From positions 9,939 to 73,938 of the forward strand of contig JAOUEW010000008.1 in assembly GCA_029858505.1 (NCBI GenBank): a stretch of DNA of 64,000 nt, written 5' to 3'. Of the stretch, positions 4,791 to 38,694 are shown piece by piece. Position numbers and translations under genes: made by a program. A model generated the notes under the pieces. That model searched no databases, was not told where the DNA came from, and was given only the letters and a program-made list of their open reading frames with translations. Within the stretch, counting starts at the first letter, position 1; each line of letters opens with the position of its first letter. Origin of the DNA: Deltaproteobacteria bacterium. GTDB taxonomy: Bacteria; SAR324; JACQKK01.

Positions 4791-6053
4791 ATGAATGCTT
4801 TTCGAATGGGTAAACTGGTGGCGCTAACCCTGGGGTTGACCTTGGGGGTGGTGTTCATTTCCCCGGTGCTGGGGCAAGAGTCCGCCCCGGTGGCAGTGGT
4901 GGAAGCCGAAGGCGTGGCCACGAACCATCCGGGCAACGCCGGGCTGTCTCACGACGAAGCCCTGGAAGCCGCCCTGCGGGCCGCGGTAGAAAAAGCCAGC
5001 GGAACTTTCATCCAAACCGAATCGGAAATGCGAGAGTTCCAACTGGTGAGGGATGAAGTGCTGACCCGCACCGAAGGATACATTCGATCTCACACGGTGT
5101 TGTCGGAGGGTCCCGATGGAGACCTGTACCGCCTGCGGGTCAAAGCCGAAGTGGTGCGAGAGCCCTTCTTAAAGTCCATGGATCAATCCCTTTCCACCCT
5201 GTACCGCCGGGTGGGCATGCCCAGCGTCATGGTGGTCATCCATGAATCCACCGCCGAGGGGCCGAGCCGCCTCAGCACCCCCAACGTGTCCGAAACCGCA
5301 ATCCGCCAGACCCTGATGCAGAATGGATTCAAGTTCATCGACTTCCGCACCTCGGGGGGCGGCCCCCTGCTGGCCCGCCTGACCCCCGGCCAAGAGCTAG
5401 ACCGAGAGGCCGTGATGGACGTGGGCCGCAAAGCGGGCGTGGCTCTGGTGATCATTGGCACCGCCCAGGCCCAAGAGCCCCAACCCCTGGGAAATGGAAA
5501 AATCTTCAGCGCCCTGGCCGTGGTGACTCTCGATGCCATCCGCACCGACACCGGGCAGGCCATTGCCTCGGCCAATGCTTCTCAAACCATGGCCCATCCC
5601 ATCTCCAGCCAAGCCGCCCTGGGGGCCCTGAAAAAATCCACCGCCAAGGCCCTGGACCCTCTGATGGCTCAGGTATCGTACGCCTGGGTGCAAGAGAACA
5701 ACCAGGGCAAGGTGGTGGAAGTGAAAGTGAACAATATCTCTTATCCCCGGCTGGTTGAGCTACAGAAACGGATGGGGGCGGGTATGTCAGGAGTGCGGCA
5801 GGTTCGTCAGCGCTCCTTCCGCCAAAAAACCGCCCTGCTGGAAGTCACCGCCACGGCCACCCCCCAAAAACTGGCGGAACAAATTTTGGCCGTTGCCCCG
5901 GAAGAATGGGATGTGGAAGTGGAGGAAACCTCGGCCCAGCGGGTGACCCTGCGCCTGCCCGATGTCGTGGCCCCCCTCAAACCCCCACCGCCAGCTTCAT
6001 CGCTTCAAACCCCCGAGTCTTCGGATTCGGAGGAAAGCCCGGAAACCCGGTAA
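4791..6053 (+). CDS. Hypothetical secreted protein with a Pro/Ser/Glu-rich C-terminal tail.
   Basis: Start chosen at MNAFRMGKLVALTLGLTLGVVFISPVLG (signal peptide). The ORF-track 5' extension from 4488 overlaps the upstream minus-strand gene. No family recognised. Confidence 0.55.
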   Translation: MNAFRMGKLVALTLGLTLGVVFISPVLGQESAPVAVVEAEGVATNHPGNAGLSHDEALEAALRAAVEKASGTFIQTESEMREFQLVRDEVLTRTEGYIRSHTVLSEGPDGDLYRLRVKAEVVREPFLKSMDQSLSTLYRRVGMPSVMVVIHESTAEGPSRLSTPNVSETAIRQTLMQNGFKFIDFRTSGGGPLLARLTPGQELDREAVMDVGRKAGVALVIIGTAQAQEPQPLGNGKIFSALAVVTLDAIRTDTGQAIASANASQTMAHPISSQAALGALKKSTAKALDPLMAQVSYAWVQENNQGKVVEVKVNNISYPRLVELQKRMGAGMSGVRQVRQRSFRQKTALLEVTATATPQKLAEQILAVAPEEWDVEVEETSAQRVTLRLPDVVAPLKPPPPASSLQTPESSDSEESPETR

Positions 6054-8639: not shown

Positions 8640-8800
8640 CCTGGCGGCTTCGCCGCCTGTCCCTCCCCTTCGTGGAGGGACTTTACCCGAAACCATCGGC
8701 TATTCGATTCATCCGTGCGGATGGTGAAACCGGGCAAAAGATAATACGACATCCGCGGGCTTCGATTCATTTTCCTTCCACGAAGGGGAGGGGTGCCGTT
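8640..8800. repeat. Single copy of the ~125-bp structured repeat family, flanked by inverted hairpin arms.
   Basis: GAAACCATCGGCTATTCGATTCATCCGTGCGGATGG...GCGGGCTTCGATTC is homologous to the units at 31157, 33803 and 36305. The flanks GTCCCTCCCCTTCGTGGAGGGAC and CCACGAAGGGGAGGGG are reverse complements of each other. Confidence 0.6.
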
Positions 8801-28563: not shown

Positions 28564-29934
28564 ATGGATGTCACCAGTGAAATGCTGAACAAATACAACG
28601 TATCGGCCCCCCGGTACACGTCCTATCCCGCCATTCCCTTTTGGAAGCCCGCCGACGGCACCCAGGCCGCGGCTTGGATTGCCGCCATGGAACCCGCCCG
28701 GCAAACCTCTTTGTCTTTGTACACCCACATTCCCTTTTGCAAAACCCGCTGTTACTACTGCGGCTGTTTCGTGGTGATTTCTCCCCACGAAGAGATTGCC
28801 CAGCCCTACGCCGATGCCCTGGAAAAAGAAATGGAACTGGCGGCGGGGCAAATGAAACACCGCTGGCCGGTGGCCCAGTATCACCTGGGGGGCGGCACCC
28901 CCAATTACCTAAACATTGCCCGAATGGAACGCTTGGTGGCCAAAGCCCGGGCGTTGTTTCCCTTTCAAGACGATGCCGAGATGAGCATTGAGGTTGACCC
29001 CCGCACCCTGAACAAAAATTATCTGGAACGGGTAAGGGCCCTGGGGTTCAACCGGCTGAGCCTGGGGGTTCAAGACTTCGACCCCGAAGTGATGGAAACG
29101 GTGAACCGGGTGCAGCCTTACGACATGGTGGCTGGCGTGGTGGAGCAGGCCCGCAAACTGGGCTTTTTATCGGTCAACTTTGATTTGATCTACGGGCTGC
29201 CCAAGCAAACCACCGCCACCTTTCAAAAAACCATGGCCCAGGTAAAAACCTTGGGCCCGGACCGGGTGGCGCTGTACCACTACGCCCACCTGCCCGACTC
29301 TCATCCCTATCACCGCCGGTTCGACCCAGCGGACCTGCCCGGCAGCCAAGAAAAGATGGATATTTTTCTGCAGGCCAGGGAGCGGTTTTTGTCGTGGGGT
29401 TATCAACCCATTGGGTTGGACCACTTTGCCAAGCCCGATGATGACCTGTCGGTGTCCTTCCGCAACCGCTCTATGCGGCGGAACTTTATGGGCTACACCA
29501 CCAAAGCCGGAACCGACATGCTGGCCTTTGGCATCAGCGCCATCAGCGATTTCAACCATGCCTTCTGGCAAAACGAAAAAAAGCTGCCCCATTATTACAA
29601 AGCCCTGGAAAAAGGCGAGCTGCCCGTGATTCGCGGATTGGAGCTGAGCGGAGACGACCGCCTGCGCCGCCAGGTCATCCAAAACCTGTTCTGCCAGGGG
29701 GGGGTAAATTTTGGGCAGATGGAGCAGGCCTACCAGATTCCGTTCCAAAGCCACTTTGCCGGAGAACTGGAAGCCCTGGCCCCCCTGCAAGACGATGGCT
29801 TGGTGACCCTTTCTCCAGAGGGCATCACCGTCACCGATCAGGGGCAGTTGTTCCTGCGGAACATCGCCATGACCTTCGACGCTTACCTGCGAAAAGGCAG
29901 CAAACCCCCGGTGCAGTTCTCTCGCACGGCATAA
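28564..29934 (+). CDS. hemN: Oxygen-independent coproporphyrinogen III oxidase (radical SAM).
   Basis: YTHIPFCKTRCYYCGC radical-SAM cluster motif. About 456 aa with an HemN C-terminal domain. Confidence 0.85.
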   Translation: MDVTSEMLNKYNVSAPRYTSYPAIPFWKPADGTQAAAWIAAMEPARQTSLSLYTHIPFCKTRCYYCGCFVVISPHEEIAQPYADALEKEMELAAGQMKHRWPVAQYHLGGGTPNYLNIARMERLVAKARALFPFQDDAEMSIEVDPRTLNKNYLERVRALGFNRLSLGVQDFDPEVMETVNRVQPYDMVAGVVEQARKLGFLSVNFDLIYGLPKQTTATFQKTMAQVKTLGPDRVALYHYAHLPDSHPYHRRFDPADLPGSQEKMDIFLQARERFLSWGYQPIGLDHFAKPDDDLSVSFRNRSMRRNFMGYTTKAGTDMLAFGISAISDFNHAFWQNEKKLPHYYKALEKGELPVIRGLELSGDDRLRRQVIQNLFCQGGVNFGQMEQAYQIPFQSHFAGELEALAPLQDDGLVTLSPEGITVTDQGQLFLRNIAMTFDAYLRKGSKPPVQFSRTA

Positions 29935-29982
29935 CGGGCGCCCCACAACCGGGATGGACAACCTCACCCCCAGAGAACCCCC

Positions 29983-31134
29983 ATGGCTGCGTCTCCCACC
30001 GATCAGGCCGAACGGATTTTGGCCGGAAAAAACAAAGAAACCATCCAGCGCCTGATGCAGGGGGTAATGCCCGTGCTGCAAGAAACCTGGGGAAACCCCG
30101 GGCGCTTTCAAGAAAAAGCCGTGGAGGCCCTGGACAAAGCCGCTCCCAGCTTGCTTTCCGAGATGGAAGCCGTGACCCTGTCTGGCCCCCTGGCCCAAAG
30201 CGTGTATCACCTGCTCGATGTCCACTTTCGCGCGGCATCGTCCACCCCAGAATTAAACGCCCTGCAAGTGAAGCTGGGAGCCAGCATGGTGTCTCCCTTC
30301 CGCCAGGGATGCCTGTGGCTGGCGGTGAAACTGCGCCAAGCCCAGTTGGTGTACCTGTCGGGGGAAGGCAAGGGCGCCCTAACCCGGCTGGCGGCGGGGC
30401 TGCAAAAAAACCTGGACAACCTGCCCCCTGAGTTGCGGGGCCTGGAACCCACCACCCTGGCTCGTCTGGAGTCGAAGCTGGCCGACGTCACCCTGCAGAT
30501 TTTGGGTCAGGCGTTGGGGCGGTTCTCGGCGGCCACCCTGGCTGGCCGCCTGCTGGAAATGGCCCGCGGCCAAGCCCGCATAGCTCCAGCGGCGGGGGCC
30601 GCGGAAGCCACGGCACCATCGGGGTACGGGGCCCTGCTGGCCCGCCTGGGCGACGCGGTGGTGAAGGCCGAAACCGCCCAGGCCCAATTCCGGTTTTCTC
30701 ACCTGGATGAAAACGGCCGGAAAACCCTGGCCAACAAAATGCGGCAGGCCATGGGTCAACAGCTTCCCCCCCTGCTGGCCCTGGCGCCGGAAGGATTCGA
30801 AACATTTTGCCGGGGAGTAGAAGCCGTGGTGTTCCCCTACCCCGAACAGGTGGAGTTTATCCGGGGGTTTTTGAAAACCCTGTATACCACCGCCAAGCAG
30901 GCCGCTTGGTTCAACGATTGCCCCACCCAAGCCAGCATCGTTCAGCAATACCGAAAACTGGCCGAAACCAAAACCATCAACCCCCTGACCCTGGCCCTGG
31001 CCAGAACCTTCGCCACCCACTCCCTGGCGGGCGGCGGGTTGACCCAGGCCTCCCTAGACGTGTTCTCCCTGGACCTGGTGGGGGAATTCCATTGGCCCCG
31101 CACGGTCGAAGACCTGCTGGCCCAATCGGCGTAA
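29983..31134 (+). CDS. Hypothetical protein (383 aa, helical). First gene of a three-gene cluster of unknown function.
   Basis: Intact ORF with good codon periodicity. No recognisable family. Confidence 0.45.
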   Translation: MAASPTDQAERILAGKNKETIQRLMQGVMPVLQETWGNPGRFQEKAVEALDKAAPSLLSEMEAVTLSGPLAQSVYHLLDVHFRAASSTPELNALQVKLGASMVSPFRQGCLWLAVKLRQAQLVYLSGEGKGALTRLAAGLQKNLDNLPPELRGLEPTTLARLESKLADVTLQILGQALGRFSAATLAGRLLEMARGQARIAPAAGAAEATAPSGYGALLARLGDAVVKAETAQAQFRFSHLDENGRKTLANKMRQAMGQQLPPLLALAPEGFETFCRGVEAVVFPYPEQVEFIRGFLKTLYTTAKQAAWFNDCPTQASIVQQYRKLAETKTINPLTLALARTFATHSLAGGGLTQASLDVFSLDLVGEFHWPRTVEDLLAQSA

Positions 31135-31156
31135 ATCTTCACCCCCCAATCCTTTT

Positions 31157-31376
31157 CTCGAAGCCATCGGCTATTCTCTACAACCGTTCGGTGGATGAAG
31201 ATTGAACGGATGCAAGCGCATAGCATCGCGGCTTCGAGTGATTCCCAAAAGCACCTCTCCCCTGCCCCCTGGCGGGGGCATCCCCTCCCCAATCAGGGAG
31301 GGGAAAGACTCGAAGCCATCGGCTATTCTCTACAACCGTTTGGTTGGTGAAAACTGAACGGATGCAAGCGCATCAC
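31157..31376. repeat. Two copies of the ~125-bp structured repeat family between the first and second genes of the unknown cluster.
   Basis: CTCGAAGCCATCGGCTATTCTCTACAACCGTTCGG...GCGGCTTCGAG (31157-31238) and a second head CTCGAAGCCATCGGCTATTCTCTACAACCGTTTGG at 31309-31376. A GC hairpin GCCCCCTGGCGGGGGC lies between them. Confidence 0.65.
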
Positions 31377-31501
31377 CCACCGGAGGGGAGTATTGGGTGC
31401 GGATGGGATGCCGCAAATAAAAATACACTTGATCTTGGAAAAACAATTGAATTAAGGTGAGGTGTCCACTGTCGCACTCCTGATCACCCCTCCCCCCCAA
31501 G

Positions 31502-32326
31502 GTGCCCATGCCCCCTGAATCTGGAACTGGCCAAGCGGCCACCATTTTACAAACCTTGTCGGATTTTATCGGCATAGAAGCCGGAAAACTCATTGAGGTC
31601 GGCGAGGTACTGGTGGCGGTAGGCTTACTGGTCATGACCCTGATGGAGCTGGTGAAAAACATGTTTCACCTGCGGTTGTTTTTTCACCGCTGGCAGGTGC
31701 GGCGCTGGCTGAACGCCCGGCCCAACCCCCGAGCCTACGAGCAGTTGATTCTGCTGGCCACGGGCTCCGCCCCCGGATCGTCTCCTGGCCTGTTGGGGCG
31801 GATGTCTGGTTTGCTGCTGGGAGACTTCCACCCCGGCGATGCCCTGTTTGACCAACCCACCACCAAAATGATGGGCCAGATCCAAGCGGCGGCCAACCAG
31901 GCCCTGGACTTCCCCCATTTGTTCCCCCATGTGTATGGCGTGTTGGCGGCGGCCTCCCCCGGCACCCTAAGCCCAGAGGGTGAAACTTGGCTGGCCTATG
32001 CCCAATCTCTCCAGGGCAAATCCACCAAAGGGAAAACACCGGTGTCGCTGGAGCAGGCCCTGCAAGCCAAAACCCAGGTGACCAAACTGGCCGCCCGCAA
32101 ACTAGACGCCCTGCAAAACAAAATAGACACCCTGTGGGCCCAACTGAACCAGCGGGTTTCGGTGGTCTCCGGTGCCCTGTTGATTGGCTACGCCCTGTCG
32201 AACGGAGCCGGGCGTGAAACGATGAGCGGATGGACCATCGCGGGCCTGGCGGTGATGGGCGGCATGATCTCTCCCTTTGCCAAAGACGTGGTGTCGGCGC
32301 TGGCGGGCCTGAAAAAGAGGGGCTGA
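31502..32326 (+). CDS. Hypothetical membrane protein (274 aa). Second gene of the cluster.
   Basis: ORF with N- and C-terminal hydrophobic helices. No family recognised. Confidence 0.45.
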   Translation: MPMPPESGTGQAATILQTLSDFIGIEAGKLIEVGEVLVAVGLLVMTLMELVKNMFHLRLFFHRWQVRRWLNARPNPRAYEQLILLATGSAPGSSPGLLGRMSGLLLGDFHPGDALFDQPTTKMMGQIQAAANQALDFPHLFPHVYGVLAAASPGTLSPEGETWLAYAQSLQGKSTKGKTPVSLEQALQAKTQVTKLAARKLDALQNKIDTLWAQLNQRVSVVSGALLIGYALSNGAGRETMSGWTIAGLAVMGGMISPFAKDVVSALAGLKKRG

Positions 32327-32329
32327 CCC

Positions 32330-33313
32330 ATGGACACCCAACCCTGGCTGGAATTGAGCTTTCGGCAATCCCCCGTGGGGGGAGACACCCAAGAAGCCCA
32401 CGGCGATATTACCGCCCTGGGCGAAGCCCTGGCCGGAGACCCCGCCCTTGGCGTGGTGTTTCTGGTGCATGGGTTTAACGTAACCCAGGCAGAGGGGCGA
32501 GAGGCTTATCGGGGGATGAACTTGGCCCAGGGGGCCCTGGCCCCCGGCCGCGACAACACCCCCCTGGCGTCGGGGCGGCAGGTGGTGCAGGTGTTTTGGG
32601 CCGGAGACCTGGACGCCCCGGAACTGGCGCGGCCCGCCTTTTATCCCTTTGCCATTGGCCGGGCCAGAGAAACAGGCCGGTTGTTCGCGGCCTTCCTGAG
32701 CAGCCTGGGGGCCCACCGCCCGGCGGACCAACCGCTGTCGGTCGAATTCATCGGCCATTCCATGGGCTGCCGGGTCATTCTGGAAACCCTGAAAAACCTG
32801 CCCGTGAAAGATCGGCTGTGGATTCACCGCGTGTTGTACTTGGCGGCGGCGGTGCCCACCCATAAGTTAGAAACCGGTAAGCAGGGAGACCTGCGCCCCA
32901 CCTGGCTGCAATGGAGCCAGGGAGAGATTCCCTGGCACAGCCTGCATTCTTGGGATGACCTGGTGCTGACCTATGCCTTTCCCCTGGGGCAAAGCCTAGG
33001 GGGGCCGGGAGAAGGCGTGCTGCCCACCGCCTTGGGCCGAAACCATTGCTGGATTCCCCTGCCCTACTTTCAGCAAACCCGCATCGCCCACGCCGGGCAT
33101 TCTGACTATTGGGGGAACCAACTGCAAAACCCCGGCGGGTGCTCCAAAGAAGAAACCCAGGCCAACAAAGATGCCGCCTGGGCCATCAACCAATACATGG
33201 GTTTTACCCAGGGCGGCCCCCGAGAATCCGCAGCCCGAGAAACCGCCGCTCGGGCGGTGATGGAAGCTCAGTCTGCCGGGCTGGAGCGGACCACCCCCCA
33301 AGTGGATTTATAA
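32330..33313 (+). CDS. Alpha/beta hydrolase of unknown function (DUF900-like serine hydrolase). Third gene of the cluster.
   Basis: VVFLVHGFN...FIGHSMGCRV nucleophile elbow (GxSxG). Start is 4 bp after the upstream stop. Confidence 0.55.
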   Translation: MDTQPWLELSFRQSPVGGDTQEAHGDITALGEALAGDPALGVVFLVHGFNVTQAEGREAYRGMNLAQGALAPGRDNTPLASGRQVVQVFWAGDLDAPELARPAFYPFAIGRARETGRLFAAFLSSLGAHRPADQPLSVEFIGHSMGCRVILETLKNLPVKDRLWIHRVLYLAAAVPTHKLETGKQGDLRPTWLQWSQGEIPWHSLHSWDDLVLTYAFPLGQSLGGPGEGVLPTALGRNHCWIPLPYFQQTRIAHAGHSDYWGNQLQNPGGCSKEETQANKDAAWAINQYMGFTQGGPRESAARETAARAVMEAQSAGLERTTPQVDL

Positions 33314-33453
33314 TCTTCAACACGATCAAACCGTTAGCCCATGGGGCCCATTTGTGGTTTGTAAACCCCGCCAGGAGAGGATAGAGTGGAGGTAACCTTC
33401 ACTGGGCAGTTCTTGATCTTCTGCCCCTGCGTCGCCCGAATCCCCCGCTTCCC

Positions 33454-33792
33454 ATGACCAAACGAGAACGCACTTACTACCGCGTGACCTTCACCAATGA
33501 AGTCGGTGAAGAAGAAGAAATCATCCAGGTCACGGCCCGGTACGTGTCGCCCTCCGACATGTACGGGCTGGTGGAAATCTCTGGCTTTGTGTTCCCCGAA
33601 GGGGGCCTGCTGCACAACCCCCAAACCGAACGGATCCGCAAAGAATTCGCCGACATCAAGCGCACCTGGCTGCCCTACCACGCCATTTTGCGCATTGACG
33701 AGGTGAGCGATGCCTCTGCGGCGGACCTGCGGGTGGTCCCCATGGACGGCACCCGTAAATCCCCCGAAAAAGTTCCCTCCAAAAACAGTTAG
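33454..33792 (+). CDS. Small conserved hypothetical protein (112 aa).
   Basis: Clean ORF, acidic N-terminus. No confident family assignment. Confidence 0.4.
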   Translation: MTKRERTYYRVTFTNEVGEEEEIIQVTARYVSPSDMYGLVEISGFVFPEGGLLHNPQTERIRKEFADIKRTWLPYHAILRIDEVSDASAADLRVVPMDGTRKSPEKVPSKNS

Positions 33793-33802
33793 GGGCCCTT
33801 TA

Positions 33803-34325
33803 CTCGAATCCACCGGCTATTTCATTCGGCCGTTCGGATGGGTCGGGTGAACGGAAACAAGCAACGCCCTAACGCCATTGAACTCCCCCTCTCTTCGGGA
33901 GAGGGGGGCGGGGGGTGAGGTCCAATGGCTCGAATCCACCGGCTATTCTATTCTCCTGTTCGGATGGGTCGGGCGAACGGAAACAAGCAACGCCCTAACG
34001 CCTTTGAACTCCCCCTCTCTTCGGGAGAGGGGGGCGGGGGGTGAGGTCCAATGGCTCGAATCCACCGGCTATTCTATTCTCCCGTTCGGATGGGTCGGGC
34101 GAACGGAAACAAGCAACGCCCTAACGCCTTTGAACTCCCCCTCTCTTCGGGAGAGGGGGGCGGGGGGTGAGGTCCAATGGCTCGAATCCACCGGCTATTC
34201 TATTCTCCCGTTCGGATGGGTTGGGCGAACGGAAACAAGCAACGCCCTAACGCCATTGAACTCCCCCTCTCTTCGGGAGAGGGGGGCGGGGGGTGAGGTC
34301 CAATGGCTCGAATCCACCGGCTTCG
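33803..34325. repeat. Tandem array of about 4.2 copies of a 126-bp unit of the structured repeat family.
   Basis: Unit starts at 33803, 33929, 34055, 34181 and 34307, exactly 126 bp apart and over 97% identical. Each unit carries the CCGTTCGGATGGGTCGGGCGAACGG hairpin and the CCCCCTCTCTTCGGGAGAGGGGG UUCG-loop hairpin. Confidence 0.85.
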
Positions 34326-34375
34326 AGAATCAAGAGGTGATTGAAGAATAAACGGGGAGAGAAAAACCGAACCCT

Positions 34376-34876
34376 TTACCAGCGGTATTCAACCCGAGAC
34401 CCAGGCCGCAACCCCAACCGTTCGGCCTGCCCGGCAGCCAGTTCCAGCACAAAGTTGGCCTCGGCGTCTGGGGCATAGGTGGGCAAATCACCATCGGGGG
34501 TGCCGGGGGGCTGGAACGGCACCCTGGAAGCCACGTACACCACCTGATTGTTATGCAACCACACGATATCAATGGAAAACACCATTCGCTTCATCCAAAA
34601 CCCATAGCGCCCAGGGCTGGCATACACAAACAACATGCCTTCGTTGGGCCCCAGCCCTTTCCGCCCCCCCAACCCCATGGCCCGCAGGGCGTCGGAGTCG
34701 GCGATGTCTACCCGAATCTCCTTGCCCCCCGCCACCACGACGGCCTGATTCATGCCTTGGTTCTTGGCCCCCCTGGCGGGGGTCCCCTGTAGAACCGAGA
34801 TGCTTAGGGCCAGCACCAGCAGGCCTTTCCCTAACCATGAGAAGCGCACATGTTGATTGGCGGACTTCAAACGCAT
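34376..34876 (-). CDS. DUF192 (COG1430) secreted protein.
   Basis: GMLFVYASPGRYGFWMKRMVFSIDIVWL core motif. Start set at MRLKS with a signal peptide. Confidence 0.65.
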   Translation of the reverse strand: MRLKSANQHVRFSWLGKGLLVLALSISVLQGTPARGAKNQGMNQAVVVAGGKEIRVDIADSDALRAMGLGGRKGLGPNEGMLFVYASPGRYGFWMKRMVFSIDIVWLHNNQVVYVASRVPFQPPGTPDGDLPTYAPDAEANFVLELAAGQAERLGLRPGSRVEYRW

Positions 34877-34983
34877 AGCGGAACCTGGAGAGAATGGGAT
34901 GGGGAAGGCTGATCTTTCGGTATGATAAGATGGACAAGACGGATAAGACCGAATGTGTTGCATGGCAACCGTAACCCGTACCG

Positions 34984-35502
34984 TTAGGCCATGGCGGCCA
35001 CCTTGGCCAGCCGTTTTTTCACCATATCCCGCCGTAGGGGAGGAAGATAGTCAATGAACAATTTTCCCTCCAGGTGATCCACCTCGTGCTGCAGGCACAC
35101 CGCCTCCAGACCCTCCAAGGTTTCCCGGCGGTGTTCCCCCTCCACCGTTTGGTATTCCACCGTTACCCGGCGGGAGCGCTTTACGTCGGCCCGAAATTCG
35201 GGAACGCTGAGGCAGCCTTCTTCCCCCACCCATTCGCCTTCTTGTTCCGTCAGGCGGGGGTTCACCCACACCCTGGGCTTCCGCAGGGCGGGGTCATCGT
35301 CTCCAGCGAAAATGTCGGTCACCACCAACCGGATGGAGCGCCCCACCTGGGGGGCCGCCAAGCCCATGCCCTCATTTTGATACATGGCGGCGGTCATCTG
35401 CCGGGCCAGCTCGGCCAAGGCGGCATCGAAGGTTTCCACCGGATCGGCTTTTCGCCGCAGGAAGGGATCGGGGAAGGTCAGAATGGTAAAGGGGGAAGAC
35501 AT
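34984..35502 (-). CDS. def: Peptide deformylase.
   Basis: GMGLAAPQVG, EGCLSVPEF and HEVDHLEG motifs. Confidence 0.9.
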   Translation of the reverse strand: MSSPFTILTFPDPFLRRKADPVETFDAALAELARQMTAAMYQNEGMGLAAPQVGRSIRLVVTDIFAGDDDPALRKPRVWVNPRLTEQEGEWVGEEGCLSVPEFRADVKRSRRVTVEYQTVEGEHRRETLEGLEAVCLQHEVDHLEGKLFIDYLPPLRRDMVKKRLAKVAAMA

Positions 35503-35799
35503 AAGTAAAACAAGCTCCTAAGAACAATCTTCCGTAAACCGTCTGGGTAAAACCATCGCCCAGTGAGCGCGGGGTGGATGGGTTATATTTTAACGCCAGA
35601 ATGCGCCCCGATCAATGGGATGGTAACTTGGTCACAGTGTAACCTCTGGGGGGATACTATCCTAAGATTGTCTGGATGATCGTTGTCCGTGAAAACCAGG
35701 GCTATGCCCCCGGCAAGTCAACGGCACAAAACAACTGAATAACGGAACCTTTCGCGAAATCTTCCGTTACAACCACAAGATCAATTGGAGGAACAGCCC

Positions 35800-36150
35800 A
35801 TGAGTTTGGTCATGGAATTAACCGATGAAACGTTTGTGAAAGAAGTGGTCGAAGCCGGGGTGCCGGTGATGGTGGATTTCTGGGCCCCCTGGTGCGGGCC
35901 TTGCCGGGCCGTGGCCCCCACCATGGAGGAAGTGGCCAGCGAGTTTCAGGGCCGGGCCAAGGTGGTAAAAGTCAATGTGGATGAAAACCAGGGCGTGTCT
36001 GGGGCCATGAACATTCGCTCCATTCCCACCGTGGCGGTGTTTGTGGGCAACACGGTGGTGGATATGCGGATGGGGGCCCTGCCCAAACCCCATTATCAGC
36101 AGATGTTGAACAATGCCTTGGCTGGCCAGGGAACTTCTCCCACAGCCTAA
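35800..36150 (+). CDS. trxA: Thioredoxin.
   Basis: WAPWCGPCR active site. Confidence 0.9.
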   Translation: MSLVMELTDETFVKEVVEAGVPVMVDFWAPWCGPCRAVAPTMEEVASEFQGRAKVVKVNVDENQGVSGAMNIRSIPTVAVFVGNTVVDMRMGALPKPHYQQMLNNALAGQGTSPTA

Positions 36151-36304
36151 CGTTATACCATAGAACGAGACGCCGTGGGTTCCGGTCGCAGCCCCCCCCT
36201 CCCCAGCGACCGGAGCCCCGGCGTTCCTCGTTTTTTCCCCATCGGATTCTTTCCCTTCCTTTTTTATCCCCTTTATTCTCATTTCTTCTTCCGCCGTCCC
36301 GATA

Positions 36305-36745
36305 CTCGAAGCCAGCGGTTATTCTGTTCATCCGTTAAAGCACCCCTCCCTGGCACCTTCGGTGCCTGTCCCTCCCCATCGTGGAGGGACAATACGGCTT
36401 AGGCCGAGGGGTGGAGATAGAATCCGTTTGGATGAGGAGACCGGAAGGAAGCAAGCGATTAACTTTTCGGCTTCGCTTTATTTCCCCTCCACGAAGGGGA
36501 GGGGATGTCCGCACAGCGGGCAGGGGAGGGGTGCTTTACGAGAGGGGCAGTGCTCGAAGCCAGCGGTTATTTTCTTCAACCGTTCAGTTGGTGAAAACTG
36601 AGCGGAAACAAGCAACGCCCAAACGCCATTGAGCTCCCCCTCTCTTCGGGAGAGGGGGCGGGGGGTGAGGTCCAAATACTCGAAGCCATCGGTTATTTTC
36701 TTCAACCGTTCGAATTGAGAAGACAGGAGGGCGGAAATACACCCC
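36305..36745. repeat. Cluster of three units of the structured repeat family (one expanded unit with nested inverted repeats, one full unit, one partial).
   Basis: Unit heads CTCGAAGCCAGCGGTTATT at 36305 and 36553, and CTCGAAGCCATCGGTTATT at 36678. The 36553-36677 unit is about 85% identical to the 33803 array unit. 36340-36534 contains nested palindromes GCACCCCTCCCTG...CAGGGGAGGGGTGC and GTCCCTCCCC...GGGGAGGGGATGTCC. Confidence 0.8.
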
Positions 36746-36765
36746 CCGATTGCGAACTGCCCCCC

Positions 36766-38694
36766 TTAGGGGGCGGGCTGAGGGGGCTGAGACGAGGCAG
36801 GTTCAGTAGGTGGAGCTGGGGCGGGAGCTTCCAGCATGGGCGCCGCAGTGGTGCCGGGGATATCCACAAACGGGATGTTTTGACGGAACAACACGCCTTC
36901 TTCCGGCGGGCGGCTGCCCTCGAATAAAACCGGGTCACTGGCGGTGAGGTACAAGATGAGGGTTTTTCGGGCTTTCTCCTGGTTGTTCATCCGCCGATAC
37001 ACCCGGCTGAGCCGCTCTAAAAACACCGTGCGGTAATGGTTGTTTTTTTCCAGCCCGGCTTCGAGCAGATCCCGGGCCAGCACCCAGTTGCCGCTTTCTT
37101 CGGCCACCCGGCTGGCCCCCTCAATCAACCCATAGTTTCGGGGATACAACGCCAGCCCCCGGTTGAACACCGCTTCGGCCTGCTTCAGGTTTCCCTCCAT
37201 TTGATACAGGTTCCCCACGGCCCGGTGAAAGGCCCCCAGGCCTTCTCCCCGGGTAAGGTAGGGGGTGAGCATTTGCAGCGCCTTGCGGGTGTTTCCCAGG
37301 CGGCCTTCCGCGGTACCGGCCAGATACACCGCCTCCCAGGGGGGGTCTTTCATGGCCAGCAGGGGTTTCGCCCCCTCCAGCGCGGCATTGTAATCGCCTT
37401 GAATGTAGGCCAGCCTGGCCCGGGCAAACAAGATGGCCGTTCCATGGTCGGGCAGCCCATCCAACACTTGTTTGGCTTCCGCAAAGCGGCCGGTCAGGGT
37501 GAGCCACTCCCCCTTCACCAGCAATCCCCGAAAATCGGTGGGGTTCAATTTCAAGTATTCTTCAATCCGCAGCCGTGCCTCCTCCAGTTTTCGCTCGGCC
37601 ATCAGCCGCTGAATTTTCAGCAGCTTGATCTGCGGATTTTCCGGATTGATTTTTTCCGCGGCGTTCAACAGGGTTTGCGCTTGGTCGGTTTCCTCTGCCC
37701 GGAACAGCAGCACGGCTTTCCAATACAGGGCTTCCTGTTGGTTGGGCTCAATATCTAGCAGGGTATTCAGCGATTCCATGGCCTGGGGGTGTTCCCCCCG
37801 GGAGATGGCCCCCCTGGCCAGGGCCAACAACACCCCCGGATGGGAAGGTTGGTGGCGGGCCAGCCCAGCCAGCAACTGGTCGGCTTGTTGAATTTCTCCT
37901 TTGCTCCGCAAGATCTCCACCCGCACCAATTGATCTTCGGTTTCCAAACCATCTTTTTGGCGCAATTGGCCCATCACCTTCAGGGCGTCGTCCCATTCCT
38001 GTCGCTGGTAATGAATATCCAGTTGCTCACGCAGCAAATCCGGGTCTCCCGGCCACTGGCGAAGGTCATCGCTGATCACCAGGGAAGCCACCGAAAAGTT
38101 ACCGCTGGCCTTCAAGATGCGAATTTTCAGCACCCGGGCATCGTGATCGTTGGGAGACACCCCCAGGGCGGCTTCCACCTCTCGGCGGGCCTCGGCCTGG
38201 CGGCCCAAGGCAAACAGCATGCGGGCATACTGAAACCGGCCTTCGAAATAACGTGGATCCCGCGCGGTGATTTTGGCTAAGATTTCCAACCCGCGGTCGG
38301 TTTGGTTCACCAGTTCATGGGTCATGGCCAGTTTCACGCTGGCCGACAGCAGGTCGGGGTCTATTTGGCTGGCTTGGTTGTAGGCCATCAGGGCGGGGAA
38401 ATACTTCTTTTGCCCCAGGTTGGCATCCCCCAGGGTCACTAAAATTTGGGCGTCGTAGGGATTCAACTTGGCAGCCTGGGCCGCGTAGGGCTCGGCTTCG
38501 GCGGGTTTGTTTTCTTTCACCAGCACCTGGGCCAACTCATGCAGCAATTCGGCATCCTCCGGCTGGCTCTCAACTTGTTTCCGGAGTTCCAACTCTCTCT
38601 GGGCCAGCTGGGTGGATAGTTCTTTGGCGCGCCAGGGGTTCAGCACCGACAGGTCGGAACAGCCGGAGAGGACGATCAACACGCCCGCCAACAT
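36766..38694 (-). CDS. Tetratricopeptide-repeat lipoprotein.
   Basis: Multiple TPR units across the full length. Start chosen at MLAGVLIVLSGC (lipobox); the ORF-track 5' extension is Arg/Gly-rich and overlaps the upstream gene. Confidence 0.65.
   Translation of the reverse strand: MLAGVLIVLSGCSDLSVLNPWRAKELSTQLAQRELELRKQVESQPEDAELLHELAQVLVKENKPAEAEPYAAQAAKLNPYDAQILVTLGDANLGQKKYFPALMAYNQASQIDPDLLSASVKLAMTHELVNQTDRGLEILAKITARDPRYFEGRFQYARMLFALGRQAEARREVEAALGVSPNDHDARVLKIRILKASGNFSVASLVISDDLRQWPGDPDLLREQLDIHYQRQEWDDALKVMGQLRQKDGLETEDQLVRVEILRSKGEIQQADQLLAGLARHQPSHPGVLLALARGAISRGEHPQAMESLNTLLDIEPNQQEALYWKAVLLFRAEETDQAQTLLNAAEKINPENPQIKLLKIQRLMAERKLEEARLRIEEYLKLNPTDFRGLLVKGEWLTLTGRFAEAKQVLDGLPDHGTAILFARARLAYIQGDYNAALEGAKPLLAMKDPPWEAVYLAGTAEGRLGNTRKALQMLTPYLTRGEGLGAFHRAVGNLYQMEGNLKQAEAVFNRGLALYPRNYGLIEGASRVAEESGNWVLARDLLEAGLEKNNHYRTVFLERLSRVYRRMNNQEKARKTLILYLTASDPVLFEGSRPPEEGVLFRQNIPFVDIPGTTAAPMLEAPAPAPPTEPASSQPPQPAP

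Follow-up and report, generated by a model that had tools for sequence, protein, structure and literature searches.

Three genes that follow one another on the same strand raise the question of whether they work together as one system. They lie in a 64,000-nucleotide (nt) stretch of a metagenome-assembled genome (MAG) of a Deltaproteobacteria bacterium (assembly GCA_029858505.1, contig JAOUEW010000008.1, positions 9,939 to 73,938 of the forward strand), referred to below as the window, and are named here p1, p2 and p3; identical proteins are on deposit as OEV94_10750 to OEV94_10760. A first-pass annotation made from the sequence alone had described them as a three-gene cluster encoding a helical protein, a membrane protein and a DUF900-type serine hydrolase, bracketed by repeat elements. 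The three open reading frames (ORFs) were found where they had been placed. However, the cluster is not a real unit, because p1 does not occur together with p2 or p3 elsewhere. The real unit is a two-gene operon, p2-p3. The genes and the p2/p3 junction are positioned as follows.

29983-31134, + strand: p1, a 383-amino-acid ORF with 29% Ala+Leu, conserved hypothetical, outside the module
31508-32326, + strand: p2, 272 amino acids from the ATG; an in-frame GTG at 31502 gives 274 amino acids
32311-32332, + strand: p2/p3 junction, comprising aagagggg, the TGA stop codon, a 3-nt spacer and the ATG of p3
32330-33313, + strand: p3, a 327-amino-acid ORF for a DUF900-like alpha/beta hydrolase

Pairing of p2 and p3

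The first three p3 homologues examined all had an unannotated gene directly upstream, coding for a protein of 252-257 amino acids with 40-42% identity to p2. By use of p2 motifs, 28 loci were retrieved from GTDB genomes and Joint Genome Institute (JGI) metagenomes, and 26 of these have downstream DNA. A p3 homologue was located immediately 3' of p2 in all 26 scorable loci, and p2 was directly upstream in each of the four loci retrieved through p3. Non-redundant contexts with the two genes adjacent number about 17, among them the genomes of Rhodoferax and Streptomyces isolates, and adjacency was also observed in MAGs of Gallionellaceae and Sulfuricaulis. The p3 relatives in the complete Rhodoferax and Streptomyces genomes are distant (A2 profile E-values of 1e-34 and 4e-20) and are nevertheless paired. 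The strand was the same and the gene order was p2 followed by p3 in every scorable locus, across taxa. On a conjugative plasmid of Sinorhizobium fredii, a hydrolase with 29% identity follows a 223-amino-acid protein that keeps only the C-terminal P-I-AKD motif of p2.

In homologous pairs the two genes overlap by up to 13 nt or are separated by up to 23 nt. In the window the junction reads TGAcccATG, so that the spacer is 3 nt and not the 4 bp given in the first-pass annotation, and the Shine-Dalgarno-like sequence aagagggg lies inside the end of p2. As read from the sequence, this arrangement fits translational coupling. The NCBI start for p2 is the ATG at 31508, giving the 272-amino-acid product (P0069). 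Pairwise identities of p2 and p3 were correlated with r = 0.94 over 29 loci, and with r = 0.88 when near-identical pairs were excluded; none of 2000 Mantel permutations reached the observed correlation. No other gene was conserved around the pair across the compared neighbourhoods. A scan of 185,579 species representatives yielded seven loci with a patchy distribution, a number which is a lower bound since exact peptide patterns were demanded. Taken together, the pairing is robust: p2-p3 is an obligate, co-evolving and self-contained two-gene operon found in unrelated bacteria.

In Syntrophales, the pair is preceded on its own strand, at a distance of about 230 nt, by a gene for a 463-amino-acid protein with a SEC-C motif (L001, 3613-5004; L004, 3604-4995), which gave a faint match to Xre_MbcA_ParS_C. 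This protein could act as a third component confined to that lineage, or its position may reflect plain shared synteny.

The p2 family and the p3 hydrolase

A profile search put the size of the p2 family at 203 members or more, with lengths of about 250 amino acids and in no case a Pfam domain, and among 59 p2 relatives no Pfam model scored above threshold. The AlphaFold2 model of p2, with a mean predicted local distance difference test score (pLDDT) of 87 and a predicted template-modelling score (pTM) of 0.77, is entirely helical, with very long helices at residues 7-53 and 181-232. No match to this fold was obtained by Foldseek either in the PDB (best E-value 0.29, TM-score 0.15) or in BFVD (best E-value 0.25), and no match of the p2 profile was found among PDB sequences. 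Thus p2 represents an undescribed family without a detectable relative in sequence searches or in PDB and BFVD fold searches. The statement of the first-pass annotation that the first two proteins show no recognisable similarity was borne out, as neither had a match in Pfam, NCBIfam, PADLOC or PDB sequences. The remote-homology and structure searches it had proposed left p2 without a fold match and p1 without a Pfam or PDB relative, and p3 was found to resemble minimal lipases. The family-averaged Kyte-Doolittle hydropathy of p2 reaches 2.0 at residues 31-49 and 1.5 at both 216-234 and 241-259, giving one clear hydrophobic helix and two borderline ones, and direct reading showed a segment rich in K, H and R directly after the first hydrophobic helix. 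This helix and the most conserved motifs are listed below.

31598-31654, + strand: hydrophobic helix 1 of p2, residues 31-49, from hydropathy
31850-31915, + strand: p2 motif DQPTxKMMGQIQAAANxALDFP, from conserved columns
32096-32152, + strand: p2 motif RKLDAxQNxIxxxWAxLNQ, from conserved columns
32258-32311, + strand: p2 motif GGMxxPFAKDVVSALxGL, from conserved columns

Weak matches to PF24838 (8xMP, octameric membrane protein family) were noted in 13 of the 59 p2 relatives, at 13-15 bits against a gathering threshold of 30. They span residues 177-249 approximately (P0077, P0102, P0155), which cover the long helix together with the second hydrophobic one. The p2 protein of the window did not match 8xMP, and no literature on this family was found.

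For p3, 58 homologues were found, and its AlphaFold2 model (pLDDT 89.9, pTM 0.87) has an alpha/beta hydrolase fold. In the alignment of 59 sequences, the His-Gly pair at 47-48, Asp210 and His257 were invariant and Ser144 was present in at least 90%. The GHSMGC sequence reported in the first-pass annotation was found at residues 142-147 (nt 32753-32770). The positions of the conserved residues are as follows.

32468-32473, + strand: oxyanion His-Gly 47-48 of p3, from conserved columns
32759-32761, + strand: nucleophile Ser144 of p3 in GHSMGC, from conserved columns
32957-32959, + strand: Asp210 of p3, invariant
33098-33100, + strand: His257 of p3 in AGHSDYW, invariant

Foldseek returned 90 matches to the p3 model in the PDB at E-values of 0.001 or below, and almost all of the best 50 were alpha/beta hydrolases. 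The nearest were SE_1780, minimal lipases of the Bacillus LipA type, thioesterases, PGAP1 and hornet phospholipase A1 (PLA1), with E-values of 1e-6 to 1e-4 and identities of at most 17%. When the family profile was compared with PDB sequences, LipA/EstA lipases came first (E-value about 1e-5), followed by pancreatic-lipase-related proteins, AcvB and hornet PLA1. By the model, p3 is therefore an alpha/beta hydrolase with a conserved Ser144-Asp210-His257 triad, whose nearest solved relatives are lid-less lipases, and a lipase or esterase activity is plausible. DUF900 (PF05990) was matched by 57 of the 59 p3 relatives at E-values of 0.01 or below (best 7.6e-14), and DUF726 came second with 32 of 59. 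Tle3 gave one weak match only among these relatives (E-value 0.006). The N-terminus of p3, MDTQPWLELSFRQSPVGGD, contains no hydrophobic signal on direct reading. From about residue 291, p3 has an Arg-containing C-terminal tail with no predicted secondary structure and a pLDDT of 65-78.

These results place p3 beside several described enzymes without equating it with any of them. With DUF900, which is listed as a family of unknown function (PMC11878206), p3 has in common the alpha/beta hydrolase fold, the GHSxG elbow and the Ser-Asp-His triad. Rhizobia are the source of the classical DUF900 members, and for the reviewed R. meliloti protein Q92YA4 an N-terminal transmembrane helix or lipoprotein signal is predicted, whereas p3 has no signal peptide. 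The archaeal protein cinquedea was shown experimentally to be a bactericidal phospholipase A, and 69% of its homologues are assigned to DUF900 by Pfam (bioRxiv 10.64898/2026.06.10.730825). Cinquedea resembles hornet PLA1, which was also among the fold matches of p3; however, cinquedea is secreted and encoded by a single gene, in contrast to p3, which lacks a signal peptide and is always accompanied by p2. The best solved relatives of p3 by profile are LipA/EstA of Bacillus subtilis and Lip_vut1 (E-values of 7.5e-6 to 1e-4), and minimal lid-less lipases were among its top Foldseek matches (E-value about 1e-5, target-normalised TM-score 0.58-0.67). The identity of these lipases to p3 is only 14-16%. 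LipA is a secreted protein of about 180 amino acids, while p3 is longer (327 amino acids) and has an extra N-terminal beta-hairpin in addition to the Arg-containing tail.

Neighbouring genes and intergenic repeats

The first gene, p1, was initially taken for an orphan, as a word-indexed search found p1 alone. It is not an orphan, since an exhaustive HMMER scan returned 25 homologues with identities of 23-38%, most of which are full-length proteins of about 380-390 amino acids. Three of the homologues were examined in their genomes, in distinct contexts (L033, L035, L037), where p1 either follows lpxC or stands in the order aspS, p1, Usp, GT9 heptosyltransferase, KdtA, and neither p2 nor p3 was found near it in any of the three. 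Conversely, no match to p1, hemN or the DUF1820 gene was obtained by tblastn in 32 loci carrying p2 and p3. The neighbourhood comparison proposed with the first-pass annotation therefore showed that the trio does not co-occur, the very outcome that the annotation had named as refuting its cluster. Compared with PADLOC, p1 gave only a chance-level match to mad1 (E-value 0.016). A relationship of p1 to p2 was considered and rejected (hhalign probability 0.2%), as was one to the SEC-C protein encoded ahead of the Syntrophales pair. The p1 family, with about 25 representatives, has an invariant P-Y-P motif (consensus FPYP) and conserved E192 and R195, and elsewhere its members adjoin lipopolysaccharide genes (lpxC; GT9 heptosyltransferase and KdtA) and a Usp gene.

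Between p1 and p2 there are 367 nt of strongly structured repeat DNA, with an RNA fold z-score of -3.6 for the intergenic region. A promoter scan detected no sigma-70 consensus site upstream of p2, and on direct reading the AT-rich stretch at about 31417-31455 is the sole plausible promoter region for this gene. On the other side of the pair, a DUF1820 gene (71 bits) starts 140 nt 3' of p3; it was never found with the pair elsewhere. The genes flanking the locus are ordinary: hemN, DUF1820 and DUF192 were assigned by Pfam, and genes for peptide deformylase and thioredoxin were read from the ORF translations. The GC content at third codon positions (GC3) was uniform at 0.73-0.75 in all five window genes, giving no compositional signal of horizontal acquisition in this genome. 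The features outside the module are listed below.

31157-31376, + strand: two repeat copies between p1 and p2, outside the module
33454-33792, + strand: DUF1820 gene
33803-34322, + strand: tandem array of a 126-bp unit, 4.1 copies, downstream of the DUF1820 gene, outside the module

The repeats thus do interrupt and follow the genes, as the first-pass annotation had stated, but their role as brackets was not upheld. The 21-nt head motif of the repeat occurs 10 times in the window, always on the + strand, at four intergenic sites (8686; 31157 and 31309; 33803-34181; 36305-36679), with 0 occurrences expected by chance. Because these sites are scattered, the repeats are not brackets specific to this locus; they belong to a dispersed intergenic family. 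The array at 33803-34322 shows 97% matches between its units. The family is modular and strongly structured, spanning 8686-8706, 31157-31376, 33803-34322 and 36305-36700, and consists of the head motif CTCGAAKCCAYCGGCTATTCT followed by CCGTTCGG...GAACGG and G/C-rich hairpins. A search of 29500-37000 against Rfam gave sub-threshold matches only. One of these, to whalefall-1 RNA, lies within the third repeat cluster (36341-36392, - strand; 26.8 bits against a gathering threshold of 37, E-value 0.001). In summary, p2-p3 is unrelated to p1, the DUF1820 gene and the repeats, which only happen to adjoin it.

Proposed mechanism and biological role

Given the fold of p3, its conserved triad and the constant presence of p2, we propose that p2-p3 is a membrane-tethered, partner-gated lipid esterase, with a rough probability of 0.55-0.6. 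The p2 protein would be an inner-membrane protein whose N-terminus lies outside, because the basic cluster directly follows helix 1 (positive-inside rule), and its helical domain of about 160 residues and its C-terminus would face the cytoplasm. The p3 protein, predicted to be cytoplasmic because it has no signal peptide, would dock onto p2 on the cytoplasmic side of the membrane and be tethered, and probably also gated, by it. Once active, p3 may strip acyl chains off a membrane lipid by chemistry of the phospholipase A or lysophospholipase type. Since p2 would be made first from the coupled message, a potentially self-damaging lipase would be kept under control.

Several points weigh against this proposal. 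Two of the three hydrophobic helices of p2 are below the usual transmembrane cut-off and contain conserved K and D residues, and therefore p2 could be a single-pass protein or only partly embedded in the membrane. The DUF900 assignment of the first-pass annotation holds at the family level, but the p3 of the window itself falls below the gathering threshold (16.2 versus 20.5 bits, E-value 0.0076), and its match is confined to about 28 residues in the region of the nucleophile elbow (135-162). Hydrolases with such a triad can also be thioesterases or peptidases, and the thioesterases RedJ and TesA were among the fold matches of p3. In addition, the loci are drawn mostly from metagenome contigs and MAGs, and some taxon labels may be binning errors. 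For instance, the p2 of a Bacteroidota MAG contig of 8.7 kb (L005) is 82% identical to the Sulfuricaulis copy (L042), which means that the gene either was transferred horizontally in recent times or sits on a short contig that was mis-binned.

The genomic surroundings of the pair are mixed. They are ordinary and chromosomal in the window, in Burkholderiales, Sulfurifustaceae, Gallionellaceae and Sulfuricaulis, and at a locus beside PmbA/TldD (L013). In Rhodoferax the pair is situated in an integrative element with AlpA, DUF3987, YagK_YfjJ_C and FRG, in Syntrophales it is accompanied by HipAB and a 1995-amino-acid DUF4011/DUF3320 helicase, and in Sinorhizobium it is carried on the conjugative plasmid. 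In Streptomyces sp. NBC_01538 (L040), a gene at 5648-5977 for PycTM, the transmembrane effector domain of Pycsar, precedes the p2-like gene by about 1.2 kb, and an insertion sequence (IS) element/transposase is found about 3 kb downstream of the hydrolase gene. At one locus (L015), a TrwB/TraG-like coupling ATPase near the pair is the sole secretion-related item; no secretion-system genes were found next to the pair in the Pfam-annotated neighbourhoods. A mobile-element or defence flavour was apparent in approximately 5-6 of about 18 non-redundant contexts, and the remaining contexts were of housekeeping type.

As to the role of such an esterase, conditional membrane damage (in defence or addiction) and routine lipid turnover appear roughly equally likely. 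A housekeeping function in lipid turnover or repair, with p2 presenting or extracting a lipid and p3 deacylating it for envelope maintenance, is a tentative possibility. It agrees with the location of the main clade among genes for OmpA, thioredoxins, pilin, transporters and two-component systems and with the native-like codon composition in the window, and a two-gene lipid-repair operon of a membrane protein and an enzyme exists in E. coli as lplT-aas. It is harder to reconcile with the absence of any conserved linkage to lipid-synthesis genes, the patchy distribution seen in the exact-pattern scan and the presence of divergent copies on mobile elements. Somewhat doubtful is an undescribed conflict module of the anti-phage or abortive-infection kind, in which p2 would sense infection, membrane perturbation or envelope damage and would release or activate the tethered p3 phospholipase on the inner leaflet of the cell's own membrane, so that the cell dies or is arrested. 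In its favour, the autonomous cassette is scattered over phyla with no gene conserved around it, and some copies are in mobile or defence-like settings (Rhodoferax, Streptomyces, Syntrophales, L015, Sinorhizobium). A precedent is the validated Rst_Hydrolase-3Tm, an anti-phage cassette which, like p2-p3, consists of two genes for a hydrolase and a transmembrane protein, and for which abortive infection was suggested (PMC9122126). This candidate was rejected as a match, and the likeness is a loose architectural analogy only, because its hydrolase is HAD-like (PMC9122126) and so of another fold than p3. Moreover, neither the p2 and p3 of the window nor any of 59 relatives of each matched one of the 5027 PADLOC models (PADLOC-DB 2.0.0), most contexts consist of ordinary chromosomal genes, tblastn with p2 gave no copies in 50,697 phage records and no match in 72,556 plasmids, and GC3 in the window shows no compositional anomaly. 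The other form of conditional damage, a toxin-antitoxin-like addiction pair of a cytoplasmic lipase toxin (p3) and a membrane-bound antidote (p2), is unlikely. The protector gene would be upstream and tightly coupled to the enzyme gene downstream, p2 and p3 are strictly co-inherited, and plasmids or integrative elements carry some of the copies, but p2 has no DNA-binding domain for autoregulation, is unusually large and highly conserved for an antitoxin, and is mostly encoded in chromosomal, non-mobile surroundings.

Two further readings concern the relationship between the proteins rather than the role. It is very unlikely that p2 is a dedicated foldase, that is, a membrane-anchored steric chaperone for p3 as in LipA-Lif. 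Lif resembles p2 in outline, p2 being all-helical with an N-terminal hydrophobic anchor and encoded next to a lipase-like gene, as is the case in LipA-Lif. However, no sequence or fold likeness to p2 was detected: none of the 59 p2 relatives matched Pfam Lipase_chap, and p2 had no Foldseek match in the PDB, which presumably includes a lipase-foldase complex. In addition, p3 has no signal peptide, the basic segment of p2 predicts a cytoplasmic and not a periplasmic domain, and the gene order is opposite to that of lipA-lif. The original interpretation as a repeat-bracketed secreted lipase effector with a helical accessory (p1) and a membrane partner is hardly tenable. Secretion systems with lipase effectors are well known and the genes in the window are close and on the same strand, yet p1 was never together with p2 and p3 in the compared loci and is separated from them by the repeat DNA, unrelated intergenic sites contain the repeats as well, p3 has neither a signal peptide nor a trafficking or effector-delivery domain, and no secretion genes adjoin the pair in the annotated neighbourhoods. 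What survives of the uncharacterised accessory system foreseen in the first-pass annotation is the module of a serine hydrolase and a membrane partner; p1 as the accessory does not.

The region, then, contains a widely scattered two-gene module, p2-p3, whose pairing is robust, next to common intergenic repeats and an unrelated p1. Among the widespread hydrolases of the DUF900 type, one large branch is always paired with a specific and structurally unmatched membrane protein. This protein, p2, defines a new family, with at least 203 members, for which a name is warranted. Since culturable hosts carry the pair, namely Rhodoferax sp. GW822-FHT02A01, Streptomyces sp. NBC_01538 and Sinorhizobium fredii NXT3, there is a testable handle on the partner-gated esterase proposed here. 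If the pair serves housekeeping, a new route of lipid turnover would have been identified through it. If it acts by conditional membrane damage, it would represent a new effector logic in the biology of bacterial conflict, and as a conflict module it would form the lipase-based analogue of defence systems with transmembrane effectors, one that is missing from current defence catalogues.

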